Below are positions 5,581 to 21,871 of a DNA stretch of 64,000 bases, piece after piece. Location of the stretch: the NCBI RefSeq assembly GCF_056746865.1, contig NZ_CM163382.1; one strand, given 5' to 3'. The stretch's first letter is position 1; the number at the start of each line of letters is the position of its first letter. Both the position numbers and the translations under genes were made by a program. The notes beneath the pieces were generated by a model. The model searched no databases. It was not told where the DNA came from and worked only from the letters and a program-made list of their open reading frames with translations.

Positions 5581-8367
5581 ATGGTTCAGATCCCCCAAAA
5601 TCCACTTATCCTTGTAGATGGTTCATCTTATCTTTATCGCGCATATCACGCGTTTCCCCCGCTGACTAACAGCGCAGGCGAGCCGACCGGTGCGATGTAT
5701 GGTGTCCTCAACATGCTGCGCAGTCTGATCATGCAATATAAACCGACGCATGCAGCGGTGGTCTTTGACGCCAAGGGAAAAACCTTTCGTGATGAACTGT
5801 TTGAACATTACAAATCACATCGCCCGCCAATGCCGGACGATCTGCGTGCACAAATCGAACCCTTGCACGCGATGGTTAAAGCGATGGGACTGCCGCTGCT
5901 GGCGGTTTCTGGCGTAGAAGCGGACGACGTTATCGGTACTCTGGCGCGGGAAGCCGAAAAAGCCGGGCGTCCGGTGCTGATCAGCACTGGCGATAAAGAT
6001 ATGGCGCAGCTGGTGACGCCAAATATTACGCTTATCAATACCATGACGAATACCATCCTCGGCCCGGAAGAGGTGGTGAATAAGTACGGCGTGCCGCCAG
6101 AACTGATCATCGACTTCCTGGCGCTGATGGGTGACTCCTCTGATAACATCCCTGGCGTACCGGGCGTCGGTGAAAAAACCGCGCAGGCATTGCTGCAAGG
6201 TCTTGGCGGACTGGATACGCTGTATGCCGAGCCAGAAAAAATTGCTGGGTTGAGCTTCCGTGGCGCGAAAACAATGGCAGCGAAGCTCGAGCAAAACAAA
6301 GAAGTTGCTTATCTCTCATACCAGCTGGCGACGATTAAAACCGACGTTGAACTGGAGCTGACCTGTGAACAACTGGAAGTGCAGCAACCGGCGGCGGAAG
6401 AGTTGTTGGGGCTGTTCAAAAAGTATGAGTTCAAACGCTGGACTGCTGATGTCGAAGCGGGCAAATGGTTACAGGCTAAAGGGGCGAAACCCGCAGCCAG
6501 GCCGCAGGAAACCAGTGTTGCAGACGAAGCGCCAGAAGTGACGGCAACGGTGATTTCTTATGACAACTACGTCACCATCCTTGATGAAGAAACACTGAAA
6601 GCGTGGATTGCGAAGCTGGAAAAAGCGCCAGTATTTGCATTTGATACCGAAACCGACAGCCTCGATAACATCTCTGCCAACCTGGTCGGGCTTTCTTTTG
6701 CTATCGAGCCAGGCGTAGCGGCATATATTCCGGTTGCTCATGATTATCTTGATGCGCCCGATCAAATCTCTCGCGAGCGTGCACTCGAGTTGCTAAAACC
6801 GTTGCTGGAAAATGAAAAGGCGCTGAAGGTCGGGCAAAACCTGAAATACGACCGCGGTATTCTGGCGAATTACGGAATTGAGCTGCGTGGGATTGCGTTT
6901 GATACCATGCTGGAGTCCTACATTCTCAATAGCGTTGCCGGGCGTCACGATATGGACAGCCTCGCGGAACGTTGGTTGAAGCACAAAACCATCACTTTTG
7001 AAGAGATTGCGGGTAAAGGCAAAAATCAACTGACCTTTAACCAGATTGCCCTCGAAGAGGCCGGACGTTACGCCGCCGAAGATGCGGATGTCACCTTGCA
7101 GTTGCATCTGAAAATGTGGCCGGATCTGCAAAAACACAAAGGGCCGTTGAACGTCTTCGAGAATATCGAAATGCCGCTGGTGCCGGTGCTTTCACGCATT
7201 GAACGTAACGGTGTGAAGATCGATCCGAAAGTGCTGCACAATCATTCTGAAGAGCTCACTCTTCGTCTGGCTGAGCTGGAAAAGAAAGCGCATGAAATTG
7301 CAGGTGAGGAGTTTAACCTTTCCTCCACCAAGCAGTTGCAAACCATTCTGTTTGAAAAACAGGGAATTAAACCGCTGAAGAAAACGCCGGGTGGCGCGCC
7401 GTCAACGTCGGAAGAGGTACTGGAAGAACTGGCGCTGGACTATCCGTTGCCAAAAGTGATTCTGGAGTATCGTGGTCTGGCGAAGCTGAAATCGACCTAC
7501 ACCGACAAGCTGCCGCTGATGATCAACCCGAAAACCGGGCGTGTACATACCTCTTATCACCAGGCAGTAACTGCAACGGGACGTTTATCGTCAACCGATC
7601 CTAACCTGCAAAACATTCCGGTGCGTAACGAAGAAGGTCGTCGTATCCGCCAGGCGTTTATTGGGCCAGAGGATTATGTGATTGTCTCGGCGGACTACTC
7701 GCAGATTGAACTGCGCATTATGGCGCATCTCTCGCGTGACAAAGGCTTGCTGACCGCATTCGCGGAAGGAAAAGATATCCACCGGGCTACGGCGGCAGAA
7801 GTGTTTGGTTTGCCACTGGAAACCGTCACCAGCGAGCAACGCCGTAGCGCGAAAGCGATCAACTTTGGTCTGATTTATGGCATGAGTGCTTTCGGTCTGG
7901 CGCGGCAATTGAACATTCCACGTAAAGAAGCGCAGAAGTACATGGACCTTTACTTCGAACGCTACCCTGGCGTGCTGGAGTATATGGAACGCACCCGTGC
8001 TCAGGCGAAAGAGCAGGGCTACGTTGAAACACTGGACGGACGCCGTCTGTATCTGCCGGATATCAAATCCAGCAATGGTGCTCGTCGTGCAGCGGCTGAA
8101 CGTGCAGCCATTAACGCGCCAATGCAGGGAACCGCCGCCGACATTATCAAACGGGCGATGATTGCCGTTGATGCGTGGCTACAGGCTGAGCAACCGCGTG
8201 TGCGTATGATCATGCAGGTACACGATGAACTGGTATTTGAAGTTCATAAAGATGATGTCGATGCCGTCGCGAAGCAGATTCATCAACTGATGGAAAACTG
8301 TACCCGTCTGGATGTGCCGTTGCTGGTGGAAGTGGGGAGTGGCGAAAACTGGGATCAGGCGCACTAA
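5581..8367 (+). CDS. polA: DNA polymerase I
   Basis: 928 aa ORF; 5'-3' exonuclease, 3'-5' exonuclease and polymerase domains recognisable. Confidence 0.97.
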
Positions 8368-8514
8368 GATTCGCCTGAACATGCCCTTTTTTCGTAAGTA
8401 AGCAACATAAGCTGTCACGTTTTGTGATGGCTATTAGAAATTCCTATGCAACAACTGAAAAAAAATTACAAAAAGTGCTTTCTGAACTGAACAAAAAAGA
8501 GTAAAGTTAGTCGC

Positions 8515-8623
8515 GTAGGGTACAGAGGTAAGATGTTCTATCTTTCAGACCTTTTACTTCACGTAATCGGATTTGGCTGAATATTTTAGCCGCCCCAGTC
8601 AGTAATGACTGGGGCGTTTTTTA
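8515..8623 (+). ncRNA. spf: Spot 42 small RNA
   Basis: Sequence GTAGGGTACAGAGGTAAGATGTTCTATC...GCCGCCCCAGTCAGTAATGACTGGGGCGTTTTTTA matches Spot 42, ends in an intrinsic terminator; immediately downstream of polA. Confidence 0.85.
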
Positions 8624-9651: not shown

Positions 9652-9897
9652 ATAGAGCGAGGACGCTAACAGGAACAATGACTCAGGATGAGGGTCAGGA
9701 GCGCCAGGAGGCGAAGACAGAGGATTGTCAGGAAGACAAACGTCCGGAGACGTAATTAAACGGAAATGGAATCAACACGGATTGTTCCGGCTAATGGAAA
9801 AACAGGGTGTGTTGGCGGCCTGCAAGGATTGTAAGACCCGTTAAGGGTTATGAGTCAGGAAAAAAGGCGACAGAGTAATCTGTCGCCTTTTTTCTTT
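9652..9897 (+). ncRNA. csrC: CsrC, CsrA-sequestering small RNA
   Basis: About 245 nt with many GGA motifs in AGGA/CAGGA contexts, ending in hairpin AAGGCGACAGAGTAATCTGTCGCCTTTTTT; between engB and yihI. Ends are approximate. Confidence 0.75.
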
Positions 9898-9962
9898 GCT
9901 TGCTTTCTGTTAGATTCCGCCGCAAATCTATACTGAATAAAACGGCTAAAAGACGAACCATT

Positions 9963-12445: not shown

Positions 12446-13855
12446 TCACTCCATCCCCAGCTCTTTTAACTTACGCGTCAGAGTGTTGCGGCCCCAGCCG
12501 AGTAGCCGCGCCGCTTCCTGTTTATGCCCCTGCGTATGTCGCAATGCGGTTGTCAGTAAAGTCCGCTCCAGCTCAGGCTGCGCTTCGGAAAGCAGATTTT
12601 GATGACCGGAACGCAGCGCCCTGTCTGCCCACTGCGCTAACAGCGTCGCCCAACTGTCCGGTTGCATATGCGAAGTACTCTCCGCAACCGTTGACTCAAA
12701 CAGTTCGCTGGGCAAATCCTGAATCAACACTTCCTGTCCGGCAGCCATCACCGTTAGCCAGCGACAGGTGTTTTCCAGCTGGCGTACGTTACCCGGCCAT
12801 GCCAGACGCGTCAGCGCGGCTTCGGTTTCCGGATGCAGCAACTTCGCTTCTACGCCCAGCTCGCGCGCGGCAACCTGTAAAAAATGACGTGCCAGACGGG
12901 GAATATCTTCCCGACGCTCACGCAGTGGCGGCAGATGAACGCGGATGACGTTCAGGCGGTGGAACAGATCCTCACGGAACTTACCTTCCTGCACCCGCTG
13001 TTCAAGATTCTGGTGAGTGGCAGCGATAATCCGCACATCCACTTTCACCGGCGCATAGCCGCCAACGCGATAAAACTGACCGTCTGCCAGCACGCGCAGC
13101 AAACGCGTCTGCACATCCAGCGGCATATCACCAATTTCGTCGAGAAATAACGTGCCGCCATCGGCCTGTTCAAAACGCCCCTGACGAATGGTGTTCGCGC
13201 CAGTAAACGCGCCTTTCTCGTGACCAAACAGTTCTGATTCGATCAAATCCTTCGGGATAGCCGCCATATTCAGCGCGATAAATGGCGCTTTGGCTCGCGG
13301 ACTGTGGCGATGCAGGGCATGAGCGACCAGTTCTTTACCGGTGCCGGATTCGCCGTTAATCAGCACGCTAATAGAAGAACGCGAAAGCCGACCGATAATA
13401 CGGAACACGTCCTGCATGGCTGGCGCTTCGCCGATGATATCGGTCGTTGGGCCGTTAAGCTGAACATTACGCGGCTGCTGCTGTTCCTGGTAATGACTGA
13501 TGGCGCGCTCAACCAGCGCGACGGCTTCGTCGATATCAAACGGTTTGGGCAGATAATCAAACGCCCCTTGTTGATAGGCGCTGACGGCAGCATCCAGATC
13601 GGAATGTGCGGTCATAATGATGACCGGAAGCATCGGATGGCGCTGTTTAATCTGCTTGAGCAGCGCCAGCCCGTCCATTCCCGGCATACGGATATCTGAA
13701 AGCAGCACATCCGGCGTTTTGCTCGCCAGCGCCTCCAGTACCTCCGCGCCGTTCTCAAATGTCGTACAGGTTAAACCCGCTCCAGCGAGCGCACGTTCAA
13801 GCACCCAACGGATGGAACTATCGTCATCGACTACCCAGACTATCCCTCGTTGCAT
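12446..13855 (-). CDS. glnG: Nitrogen regulation protein NR(I), sigma54-dependent response regulator NtrC
   Basis: 469 aa from [12 protein letters not shown]; receiver domain, AAA+ sigma54 activator domain (GESGTGKE), HTH. Confidence 0.92.
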
Positions 13856-13866
13856 AAACGTCACCT

Positions 13867-14916
13867 TTATTTCCTGATAGGCAGGTAAACCGAGAACTCG
13901 GTATGACCTGGCCAACTGGTAAATTCAATTTTGCCTGAATGCTGATCAATCAAATTACGGGCGATGGATAAGCCAAGCCCGGTGCCACCTTCGCGGCCGC
14001 TGACCATCGGGTAAAACAGCGTATCCTGCAAATGAGGCGGAATACCTGGCCCGTTATCTTCCACATCAATTCGCGCCGCCAGCCGATAACGCTCGCCGTG
14101 TAAGGTCAGTTGGAAAGCTGTGCGGGTACGCAGAATGATTTCACCACCCTCTGGCCCCAGCGCCTGTAGCGCATTGCGCACAATATTCAGGAGCACTTGC
14201 TCAATTTGATCCGGGTCGTGCGCCAGTTCCGGCAGGCTGGGGTCGTAATCACGAATCAACCGCACGTTGTCCGGCAGTTCCATCGACACCAGCGTCACCA
14301 CGCGTTCAGCCACTTTATGAATACTTTCGGTAACGCGCGTACCGGGCAGTTGCGGTCCCAACAGACGGTCGACCAGATTTCGCAGCCGGTCCGCCTGTTC
14401 GATAATAACTTTGGTATATTCGAGTAGTGACGGGTCAGGTAATGCTTTGCTGAGCAGCTGCGCCGCGCCACGTAAACCGCCAAGCGGATTTTTAATCTCA
14501 TGTGCCAGGCCGCGCACTAAATCACGGGCAGCAACCTGCTGGGCGTGCTGTAGCTGTTCCTGACTTAAGCGGCGCTGGTTATCCATCGGTGCCATCTCCA
14601 GCAGGATCATGCCGTCCGGCATACGCTGGGCCGTCACAGAAAGGATATGCGAGCGCCCGTCGATGACCAGCGTCACTTCGTTATCGGTAAAACCTTGCCC
14701 CGCCTCCAGACTTTCTTGCATCAGCTCGATATTTAATGAGAAGTAGCTCAACAGTTCCGGTAACGGTGTACCAAACAATTTGCGGGAGCTTTGGGCGAGC
14801 AGTTGTTGCGCGGCGGGGTTGGCGTAATGGATCGCCAGGTTGTCATCGATTAACAAAATACTGTTAATCAGCGAGTTGAGGATCTGCCCAGCATCGGGCT
14901 GCGTGCCTGTTGCCAT
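13867..14916 (-). CDS. glnL: Nitrogen sensor histidine kinase NR(II), NtrB
   Basis: 349 aa, H-box HEIKNPL, ATPase domain. Confidence 0.92.
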
Positions 14917-15002
14917 AAAGCAGTCTCCTGAACAGGTTGCACCATTTTAGTGCATTATAGCTTTTTACGGATAAAAAGCGCGAAGCATCAGAGAATTGAC
15001 GG

Positions 15003-15030
15003 AGAAAAAAGCCCATGCAGAGATGGGCTG
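15003..15030 (-). terminator. Rho-independent terminator in the glnA 3' region
   Basis: Minus-strand hairpin GCCCATCTCTGCATGGGC followed by TTTTTT. Confidence 0.55.
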
Positions 15031-15089
15031 AAAGTTTCCACGGCAACTAAATCCCGGCGTTGTTGCGCCGGGTAGTACAACTTCAACTA

Positions 15090-16499
15090 TTAGACGCTGT
15101 AGTACAGCTCAAACTCTACCGGATGCGGAGTCATACGCACGCGGTCATCTTCTTCGCGACGCAGAGCGATGTACGCATCGATCGCTTCATCAGTGAACAC
15201 GCCACCGGCTTTCAGGAACTCGCGGTCCAGATCCAGTTCGTTCAGTGCTTCTTCCAGAGAGCCTGCAACTTGTGGGATCTCTTTCGCTTCTTCTGGCGGC
15301 AGGTCATACAGGTTTTTGTCCATGGCTTCGCCCGGATGGATCTTGTTCTTGATACCATCAAGACCGGCCATCAGCAGGGCAGCAAAGCACAGGTACGGGT
15401 TAGCCGCCGGATCCGGGAAACGTACTTCGATACGACGTGCTTTCGGAGAAGAAACCACCGGAATACGGATAGACGCAGAACGGTTGCGTGCAGAGTAAGC
15501 CAGCATTACCGGTGCTTCGTAGCCCGGGACCAGACGCTTATAAGAGTTGGTGGTCGGGTTTGCCAGGGCGTTAATCGCTTTAGCGTGTTTGATTACGCCG
15601 CCAATGTAGTACAGCGCCTGCTCAGACAGACCTGCGTATTTGTCGCCTGCGAACAGGTTAACGCCGTTTTTAGACAGAGACATGTGGCAGTGCATACCGG
15701 AGCCGTTATCACCGAACATCGGTTTTGGCATAAAGGTCGCGGTTTTACCGAAGCGGTGCGCTACGTTGTGCACAACATATTTGTAGATCTGAATTTCGTC
15801 AGCTTTTTTGGTCATGGTATTGAAGCGGGTAGCCACTTCGTTCTGACCAGCAGTCGCTACTTCGTGGTGATGGGCTTCAACCACCAGACCCATCTGTTCC
15901 ATCACCAGACACATTTCAGAACGAATATCCTGAGCAGAGTCTACCGGCGGAACCGGGAAGTAACCGCCTTTCACTGCCGGACGGTGACCTTTGTTACCAC
16001 CTTCGTATTGGGTGGAGGAGTTCCATGCGCCTTCGATATCGTCGATAGCAACGTGGGAACCGGAGATAGAAGATCCGAAACGGATGTCATCGAACAGGAA
16101 GAATTCAGGTTCTGGCCCGAACAGTACGGTGTCGGCAATGCCAGTGGAACGCAGGTAATCTTCGGCGCGCTTCGCAATAGAGCGCGGGTCACGGTCATAG
16201 CCTTGCAGGGTGCCAGGTTCAAGGATGTCGCAACGGATAATCAGGGTAGAATCGGCGAAGAACGGGTCAATCACTGCGGTGGACGCGTCTGGCATCAGCA
16301 CCATGTCGGATTCGTTAATGCCTTTCCAGCCGCCAATCGAGGAGCCGTCAAACATTTTGCCTTCTTCGAAGAATTCAGCATTCACCTGATGAGCAGGGAT
16401 AGTGACGTGCTGTTCTTTACCTTTGGTATCGGTGAAGCGCAAATCAACAAACTTCACTTCGTGCTCGTTCAGCATCGTCAGTACGTGTTCAGCGGACAT
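15090..16499 (-). CDS. glnA: Glutamine synthetase
   Basis: 469 aa, canonical GS sequence including the adenylylation-site region. Confidence 0.97.
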
Positions 16500-16580: not shown

Positions 16581-16599
16581 AAAGCGAAATCTGTGCCAA
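16581..16599 (-). promoter_or_regulatory. sigma54 promoter glnAp2 (-24 TGGCAC / -12 TCGCT)
   Basis: Minus-strand TTGGCACAGATTTCGCTTT upstream of glnA. Confidence 0.7.
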
Positions 16600-16639: not shown

Positions 16640-16720
16640 CGTGCAAAAGGGCTGCACCATGATATGAATGTTGCACCAATATAGTGCTTCAATGGAAACA
16701 TTAAGCACCATATTGGTGCA
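16640..16720. promoter_or_regulatory. NtrC binding sites upstream of glnA
   Basis: Palindrome GCACCATATTGGTGC at 16705-16719 plus additional TGCACCA half-site repeats. Confidence 0.6.
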
Positions 16721-16871
16721 ATGACCTTTGGATAACCCTTTTTATGCTCCGTGAAAGCGATCACAAAGGGACTCTGCAATACTTGTTTGCGGAGGATGTT
16801 TGTGATCCTGTTTTGTAGTGCGATTAATCCGTGTACAATAACGCGCTATTTCTAATGCCTGAGGCAAAGTT

Positions 16872-19629: not shown

Positions 19630-21871
<2,242 letters not shown>

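Follow-up and report, generated by a model that had tools for sequence, protein, structure and literature searches.

The glnA-glnL interval of an Escherichia coli chromosome carries a match to the O157-type allele of the small RNA GlnZ (EsrF), followed by the NtrC-controlled glnL promoter

The stretch of DNA analysed here (64,000 nt, hereafter the window) carries, immediately downstream of glnA on the minus strand, an 85-nt element (15005-15089) that is very probably (we would put it at about 0.93) the known small RNA GlnZ in its O157-type, or Class I, form, also described as EsrF; it is followed by the known glnL promoter, glnLp, with its NtrC operator, and both have already been published. 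The window is part of an E. coli chromosome: of 5426 complete E. coli genomes, 5425 contain a match to a 423-nt query across the interval, annotated there with glnA and glnL. The element adjoins glnA on the same strand with glnL and glnG downstream, an order with which the annotation of identical genomes agrees, and three genes of the open reading frame (ORF) list frame it:

12446-13915, minus strand: glnG
13867-14916, minus strand: glnL, annotated at the equivalent position in O157 and K-12
15090-16499, minus strand: glnA

The gap between glnA and glnL (14917-15089) measures 173 nt, close to the 170 nt or so of the first-pass annotation. Nucleotides of the glnA 3' untranslated region (UTR) are numbered below from the first base past the stop codon, so that UTR nucleotide n lies at window position 15090 - n.

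Over the 86 nt that follow the stop codon of glnA, the window shows 100% identity with E. coli O157:H7 and with numerous further strains, CFT073 among them; a 223-nt region comprising the end of glnA, glnLp and the start of glnL is identical to O157:H7 strain PV15-279. The O157-type GlnZ of O157:H7 EDL933 and Sakai has no sequence difference from the window and agrees with it in position, length (85 nt), seed, terminator and 5' hairpin. Expression, dependence on Hfq and RNase E, and target repression are taken from the literature on these alleles. In EDL933, EsrF is an Hfq-dependent RNA of 85 nt by 5' and 3' RACE; its first base is the T adjoining the stop codon of glnA, and it ends at the terminator (Jia et al. 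2021, PMC8092317). Nitrogen deprivation induces Class I GlnZ, which represses glnP, a compensatory glnP mutant restoring the repression, and which lowers the levels of SucA and of the aceE 5' UTR, whereas a seed mutant does not (Walling et al., bioRxiv 10.1101/2022.04.01.486790). The O157-type 85-nt 3' UTR is seen on northern blots with glutamine as the sole nitrogen source (Miyakoshi et al., PMC9731577). Release by RNase E is required for function, as was shown with the glnA mRNAs of K-12 and Salmonella (PMC9731577). By analogy with these identical or homologous alleles, the element in the window would have the same function. The first-pass annotation, which had proposed a GlnZ-equivalent 3'-UTR small RNA ending at the terminator, was therefore right about its identity, given that 86 of 86 nt equal the O157:H7 allele and hence the published 85-nt EsrF/GlnZ; its word 'candidate' is too weak, because expression and target regulation have been demonstrated experimentally for exactly this allele.

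Anatomy, identity to a characterised allele, conservation and target complementarity are shown directly by the present analysis. The 85 nt make up the entire glnA 3' UTR, beginning with the first base past the stop codon and finishing with the terminator's last U, and are divided as follows:

15005-15089, minus strand: GlnZ small RNA, O157-type/Class I (= EsrF), UTR nt 1-85, by identity to O157:H7
15053-15072, minus strand: 5' hairpin CCCGGCG-CAACAA-CGCCGGG, UTR nt 18-37, 7 G-C pairs, from the terminator scan and the minimum free energy (MFE) and centroid folds
15051-15055, minus strand: candidate RNase E site RN↓WUU (GG↓AUU / GA↓UUU), UTR nt 36-40, from a motif scan, at the foot of the 5' hairpin
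15035-15046, minus strand: seed 5'-UUGCCGUGGAAA-3', UTR nt 44-55, an exact match to the published conserved seed (PMC9731577)
15005-15029, minus strand: Rho-independent terminator AGCCCAU-CUCUGC-AUGGGCU with U-tract, UTR nt 61-85, from scan and fold

The predicted fold of the 86-nt RNA (-28.3 kcal/mol; z = -2.3 relative to dinucleotide shuffles) consists of these two hairpins joined by a less structured segment. The seed, situated between the 5' hairpin and the terminator and directly upstream of the latter, is predicted to be more accessible than any other internal segment (mean P(unpaired) 0.61). The terminator hairpin (15029-15010) has a 7-bp stem (AGCCCAT/ATGGGCT) and a 6-nt loop; its T-run comprises six Ts at 15010-15005, the T at 15010 belonging to the stem as well. 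The strong hairpin and U-tract had earlier been placed at 15003-15030, within 2 nt of this position. A terminator scan found three terminator-like sites in an 800-nt region, compared with 0.9 ± 0.9 in shuffled sequences, and revealed the second, G+C-only hairpin (15072-15053), which the earlier annotation lacks. This 5' hairpin is specific to the O157-type allele, although homologues occur in two other loci of the species scan described below (L085, Enterobacter sichuanensis, and L097), and its 3' arm overlaps a GGGAUUUAG motif at UTR nt 35-43. The terminator, which is identical in the K-12, O157 and O111 alleles, forms the 3' end of the small RNA and is presumably its Hfq-binding module; it also acts as a partial terminator between glnA and glnLG, and the terminator upstream of glnLp has been described as of moderate strength (PMC9731577).

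At the level of motifs, the hints of RNase E and Hfq action are RN↓WUU at nt 37/38, the U6 tail and a U/A-rich stretch before the terminator. A cut at nt 37/38 would give a species of 47-48 nt consisting of seed and terminator, analogous to the Salmonella GlnZ2 of about 50 nt; a 'processed species' has been seen for O157 GlnZ (PMC9731577). Agreement with the RNase E consensus RN↓WUU is only partial at the 5' end of the small RNA, beside the stop codon (UAA↓UAGUU). The general plan, in which RNase E releases a 3'-UTR small RNA composed of a seed and the mRNA's own terminator as Hfq module, is that of SroC (gltI), SdhX (sucD), CpxQ (cpxP) and NarS (narK), which like GlnZ act in the pathway of the parental protein; parents, seeds and targets are unrelated, and the likeness is one of mechanism only.

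Alignment to published GlnZ sequences, which had been suggested as a check, confirms the identity along the whole element for O157:H7 and extends in K-12 only to about 20 nt of seed and about 26 nt of terminator. K-12 GlnZ (ncRNA glnZ, b4836, Class III) is 194 nt long in the MG1655 RefSeq annotation, as against 85 nt in the window. It occupies the same locus and has the same seed, an identical terminator and an identical glnLp region, and its validated targets are likewise sucA, glnP and aceE; nevertheless the window aligns to K-12 at three places only, namely about 20 nt around the shared UUUAGUUGCCGUGGAAACUUU, the terminator, and the whole of the sequence beyond it. The K-12 seed is located 8 nt past the stop codon and about 145 nt before the terminator, the intervening sequence including a REP element that folds into a long stem; the CCCGGCG/CGCCGGG hairpin and the GGGAUUUAG motif are both absent, and the gap between glnA and glnL is 285 nt rather than 173 nt. 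The Salmonella enterica forms GlnZ1 and GlnZ2 (Class II, 185 nt and about 50 nt) have the seed directly upstream of the terminator, as in the window, are released in an RNase E-dependent manner and repress sucA and glnP like the O157 type; however, an extra G beside the Salmonella seed abolishes regulation of aceE and adds deoD as a target, whereas the window has U41, the aceE-competent state, the U at nt 41 being needed for aceE regulation by O157 GlnZ (Miyakoshi et al., PMC9731577).

The conservation of the element was examined by scanning one genome per species, about 100,000 species in all, for GCCGTGGAAACTTTNNGCCC (the seed, two unspecified nucleotides and GCCC), which occurs at no fewer than 120 loci. 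In 114 of the 120 matches listed, the motif lies directly 3' of the GlnA C-terminus on the same strand; two of the other listed matches are truncated by contig ends and four appear to be chance matches. It is this placement that shows the element not to be a product of chance, and it does so more strongly than the statistics of the fold or of the terminator scan. The genera listed are almost all Enterobacterales (Citrobacter, Enterobacter, Klebsiella, Kluyvera, Serratia, Yersinia, Rahnella, Erwinia, Pantoea, Edwardsiella, Plesiomonas and others). Among the matches listed, all 112 complete tails contain the hairpin, 102 with six Watson-Crick pairs and the other 10, as judged by eye, with a G-U closing pair; the 102 were also confirmed to have six or more consecutive Ts. 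Bases outside the search pattern are also shared by the matches listed: GUU or AGUU precedes GCCG in 111 of 112 loci, and most continue with CUCC. Indeed, the terminator is conserved in sequence, GCCCAUC-loop-GAUGGGC-U6-CUCC being nearly invariant in the 112 loci listed, and only one lineage among them, Plesiomonas (L011, GCCCGCC...GCGGGC), has compensatory changes in the stem. The seed is mostly 119-133 nt from the glnL ATG among the matches listed (128 nt in the window), while anything between 10 and 171 nt of unrelated sequence separates the seed from the stop codon; everything 5' of the seed-terminator-CUCC block is freely replaced by REP, ERIC-like and other insertions. A conserved block of seed and terminator is the pattern predicted for a small RNA module, and one that a bare terminator does not require.

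The principal alternative concerns the origin and action of the same RNA. The EsrF model (Jia et al. 2021) takes the 85-nt RNA for a primary transcript of a separate promoter inside the 3' end of glnA, repressed by NtrC and induced by high ammonium, which activates flhB by means of GGGAUUUAG, blocking Rho termination in the flhB leader and so promoting motility and virulence. Resistance to TEX, the lack of any change upon deletion of the glnA promoter, gel shifts with flhB RNA and motility phenotypes were offered for it (PMC8092317), and the window does contain GGGATTTAG at UTR nt 35-43; the exact 9-nt complement CTAAATCCC is found at -93 relative to the K-12 flhB start codon, within the published site at -82 to -97. 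A 9-nt match from a genome-wide target predictor is, however, expected somewhere by chance, and the duplex of the seed region with flhB is no better than those of shuffled seeds (0.25). The motif's GGG is tied up in base pairs as part of the 3' arm of the 5' hairpin, and conservation of the motif does not extend beyond the O157 type: most species have UUUUUUG there among the matches listed, and K-12 lacks the motif. Two independent laboratories found EsrF/O157 GlnZ to be induced by low rather than high nitrogen (bioRxiv 10.1101/2022.04.01.486790, PMC9731577), and a scan of 14600-15400 found no sigma-70-like promoter on either strand. We therefore think it unlikely that the EsrF model is the right account of the element, although the activity it describes may be additional and allele-specific, on top of the function of GlnZ.

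Two further readings, which we consider unlikely, go beyond what has been published for GlnZ. The near-invariance of the block and its fixed distance from glnL could mean that the terminator hairpin has a sequence-specific role besides termination and Hfq binding, as a DNA-level element of glnLp or as a protein contact; alternatively, the O157-type 5' hairpin with its GGGAUUUAG motif may add targets such as flhB that are missing from the repertoire of the K-12 allele.

That the interval acts solely in cis, as a terminator or attenuator that parts glnA from glnLG and stabilizes glnA mRNA, the 'seed' being under some other constraint and no trans-acting small RNA being made, is highly improbable. 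A classical moderate-strength terminator has been placed upstream of glnLp (Ueno-Nishio 1984, as cited in PMC9731577), and deletion of the terminator slightly lowers GlnA (PMC9731577); the role in termination is real and coexists with that of the small RNA. A cis-acting terminator does not account for a 14-nt unstructured search key immediately 5' of it, nearly all of whose listed matches are found 3' of glnA in more than 100 species in which the rest of the UTR is unrelated, nor for the compensatory mutations of seed and target that restore repression (bioRxiv 10.1101/2022.04.01.486790, PMC9731577). A small protein encoded in the gap can be dismissed: the ORF list does hold a 60-aa frame with a TTG start (14864-15046, minus strand) and a 41-aa frame with a GTG start (14950-15075, plus strand), but the supposed TTG start coincides with the first base of the seed and has no preceding Shine-Dalgarno sequence, the minus-strand frame crosses the terminator and the promoter and enters glnL out of frame, and no conserved reading frame could accommodate the indels and differences in length that separate alleles and species.

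Complementarity to the targets of GlnZ was assessed with the seed only against the leaders of the K-12 target genes. The seed forms predicted duplexes with the sucA leader at -48 to -26 (-20.7 kcal/mol; fraction of shuffled seeds at least as good, 0.064), with the glnP leader at -22 to -11 (-18.4 kcal/mol; 0.084) and with the aceE leader at -105 to -90 (13 contiguous pairs, -20.8 kcal/mol; 0.018). The aceE duplex covers C-99, the position experimentally compensated in published work, and the glnP duplex, just 5' of the start codon, agrees with published work that puts the site immediately before the Shine-Dalgarno sequence. The seed-target prediction proposed in the first-pass annotation accordingly places the duplexes at or near the published sites with modest significance against shuffles, and the support for these targets comes from the coincidence with validated sites and not from the energies, which are only modestly unusual. 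Full-length RNAduplex predictions of the small RNA against the target leaders were dropped, as they gave unrealistic end-to-end duplexes, the same as for shuffled sequences.

The regulatory sites of the glnALG operon that bear on expression of GlnZ and glnLG are the following:

14914-14916 and 14925-14929, minus strand: glnL start codon ATG and Shine-Dalgarno sequence AGGAG, from sequence and ORF list
14938-14954, minus strand: NtrC (NR-I) operator TGCACTAAAATGGTGCA, with 1 mismatch to TGCACCNNNNTGGTGCA on both strands
14954-14959, minus strand: glnLp -10 hexamer TATAAT, read from the sequence
16583-16598, minus strand: glnAp2 sigma-54 promoter TGGCACAGATTTCGCT, a pattern match in the correct place upstream of glnA
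16672-16688 and 16704-16720: two high-affinity NtrC enhancer sites upstream of glnA, with 1-2 mismatches, palindromic on both strands

The first-pass annotation had reasoned that the glnL promoter must lie in the interval between glnA and glnL, and this is where both the TATAAT (14959-14954) and the NtrC palindrome (14954-14938) are found. From its position the TATAAT probably belongs to glnLp, an established sigma-70 promoter that is repressed by NtrC (PMC9731577, PMC3870243). A good -35 hexamer for glnLp was not found, and a consensus scan reports no two-hexamer promoter, which fits a weak -35 element; the assignment of glnLp depends on the TATAAT, the NtrC palindrome and the literature together, since the sigma-70 scan by itself supports neither glnLp nor an EsrF promoter. 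The NtrC operator, which follows the palindromic pattern TGCACC-N4-TGGTGCA expected upstream of glnL, overlaps the -10 box and the start region of glnLp. With at most two mismatches on both strands, the only other NtrC sites in the window are the two glnA enhancers, whose role is documented (PMC3870243), and one at 7324-7340. At three mismatches the NtrC pattern is no commoner in the window than in shuffled sequences, NtrC and sigma-54 patterns with 2-3 mismatches show no window-wide enrichment, and the sigma-54 pattern of glnAp2 is likewise not enriched in the window when taken alone; hence only low-mismatch, correctly placed matches are meaningful. In the published layout of glnALG, NtrC activates glnAp2 and represses glnAp1 and glnLp (PMC9731577, PMC3870243). 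The corresponding sites being present here, glnAp2 would, by analogy with that layout, drive glnA and hence GlnZ under nitrogen limitation.

A count of the three allele types of GlnZ across 5426 complete E. coli genomes adds figures, in a small way, to the three-type classification already in the literature. The 86-mer of the window is matched in 3853 genomes of O157 or O111 type: 2756 match at 99% or more and are of O157 type, and about 1097 match at 95-99%, nearly all of them, in sampled rows, in two pieces over 231 nt, which is the O111 type. Another 1571 complete genomes carry the K-12-specific junction, so that the types sum to 5424, with shares of about 51% (O157 type), 20% (O111 type) and 29% (K-12 type) of the 5426. 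In an O111-type allele (L003, E. coli O152:H23, 401-631), a 145-nt insertion flanked by AGGTTCAAA direct repeats separates the 5' hairpin from the seed, and a 1-nt deletion just 3' of the core seed gives GGAAATTTC instead of GGAAACTTTC.

In the K-12 allele, GlnZ nt 4-38 align at 30 of 34 positions with the window's seed, terminator 5' arm and loop UCUCUG (L001 1929-2125, minus strand, against 15005-15052, minus strand), and the K-12 hairpin after the seed (GCCUG/CAGGC) is two compensatory pairs apart from the terminator stem (GCCCA/UGGGC). The resemblance suggests, on statistically weak grounds, that the K-12 allele may contain an old terminator copy that lacks a U-tract, followed by the REP element and a second copy of the terminator. 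A test for a tandem duplication of seed and terminator as the origin of the K-12 allele gave no significant support (p = 0.21 for the terminator part alone; no seed remnant before the K-12 terminator, p = 0.93). Elsewhere, glnA 3' UTRs of 175-217 nt occur in Citrobacter werkmanii (L008) and about 15 other loci, among them L012, L016, L037, L046, L047, L057, L070, L103, L110, L111, L113 and L122; the core of the Citrobacter sequence, GTGAATCCCCGGGAGCTTACATAAGTAAGTGACTGGGGTGAGCG, matches the ERIC/IRU repeat, and the ERIC2 primer sequence matches it exactly. Lineages thus differ in the mobile repeat that has come to occupy this UTR: REP in K-12, an ERIC-like element in these loci and a further one in the O111 type.

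Rfam 15 contains no family that reaches its gathering score in the interval, and no model that reaches threshold on E. coli GlnZ. The best sub-threshold match is RF02766 Ysr49 (Yersinia sRNA 49; 15005-15109, minus strand, 34.1 bits, E = 1.6e-4, against a gathering score of 95), with an alignment that is confident over the seed-and-terminator third only. Ysr49 spans the Yersinia glnA 3' UTR and has the seed and terminator in common with the window (GCCGuGGAAACUUUUgGCCCau...GGGCuUUUUU); the low score of the window is explained by the 5' two-thirds of the model, which are specific to Yersinia. On Yersinia loci Ysr49 is above threshold exactly over the seed motif (L086 5303-5426, L117 3863-3986), which makes it the Yersinia orthologue of GlnZ; the relation of the window to Ysr49 is one of orthology at the locus, not of membership of the Rfam model as built. 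We found no connection between Ysr49 and GlnZ within the literature searched that mentions Ysr49. Weaker matches to anti-hemB and mmgR/suhB (E = 0.059 and 6.4) were set aside as terminator-shaped chance matches. The PGAP annotation has no feature beneath the GlnZ sequence in any non-K-12 genome row examined and so, together with the absence of a model at threshold in Rfam 15, automated pipelines miss E. coli GlnZ. The identification is of practical value for annotation, and a sequence scan that picks out the element is working as it should.

Other RNAs of the window score above the Rfam gathering score:

8505-8623, plus strand: Spot 42
9652-9905, plus strand: CsrC
21054-21176, minus strand: isrC-like Hfq-binding RNA
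46767-46825, minus strand: SECIS_3 selenocysteine insertion element
61020-61097, minus strand: naRNA4, REP-derived

An Rfam match to the ES222 small RNA (133 bits, gathering score 62) at 16683-16790 on the plus strand, between glnA and typA and opposite in strand to glnA, overlaps the two NtrC enhancer sites (16672-16720). No tRNA genes were found in the 64,000-nt window.

Under nitrogen limitation, phosphorylated NtrC would activate the sigma-54 promoter glnAp2, and most transcription of glnA would stop at the intrinsic terminator (15005-15029), whereupon RNase E would free the glnA 3' UTR as a stable, Hfq-dependent small RNA. Its seed would pair with the 5' leaders of sucA (the E1 component of 2-oxoglutarate dehydrogenase), glnP (the glutamine ABC transporter) and aceE and repress them, so that 2-oxoglutarate could be channelled to the synthesis of glutamate and glutamine while the same mRNA makes glutamine synthetase. 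Basal, autorepressed expression of glnLG would come from glnLp, a weak promoter, and to this expression read-through of the terminator may add under nitrogen limitation. Since all of this was published in 2021-2022 for exactly the identical allele, the present analysis adds no new biology to it; what the element means for E. coli is that GlnZ couples nitrogen and carbon metabolism, the mRNA of glutamine synthetase yielding a small RNA that lowers 2-oxoglutarate dehydrogenase and the import of glutamine.
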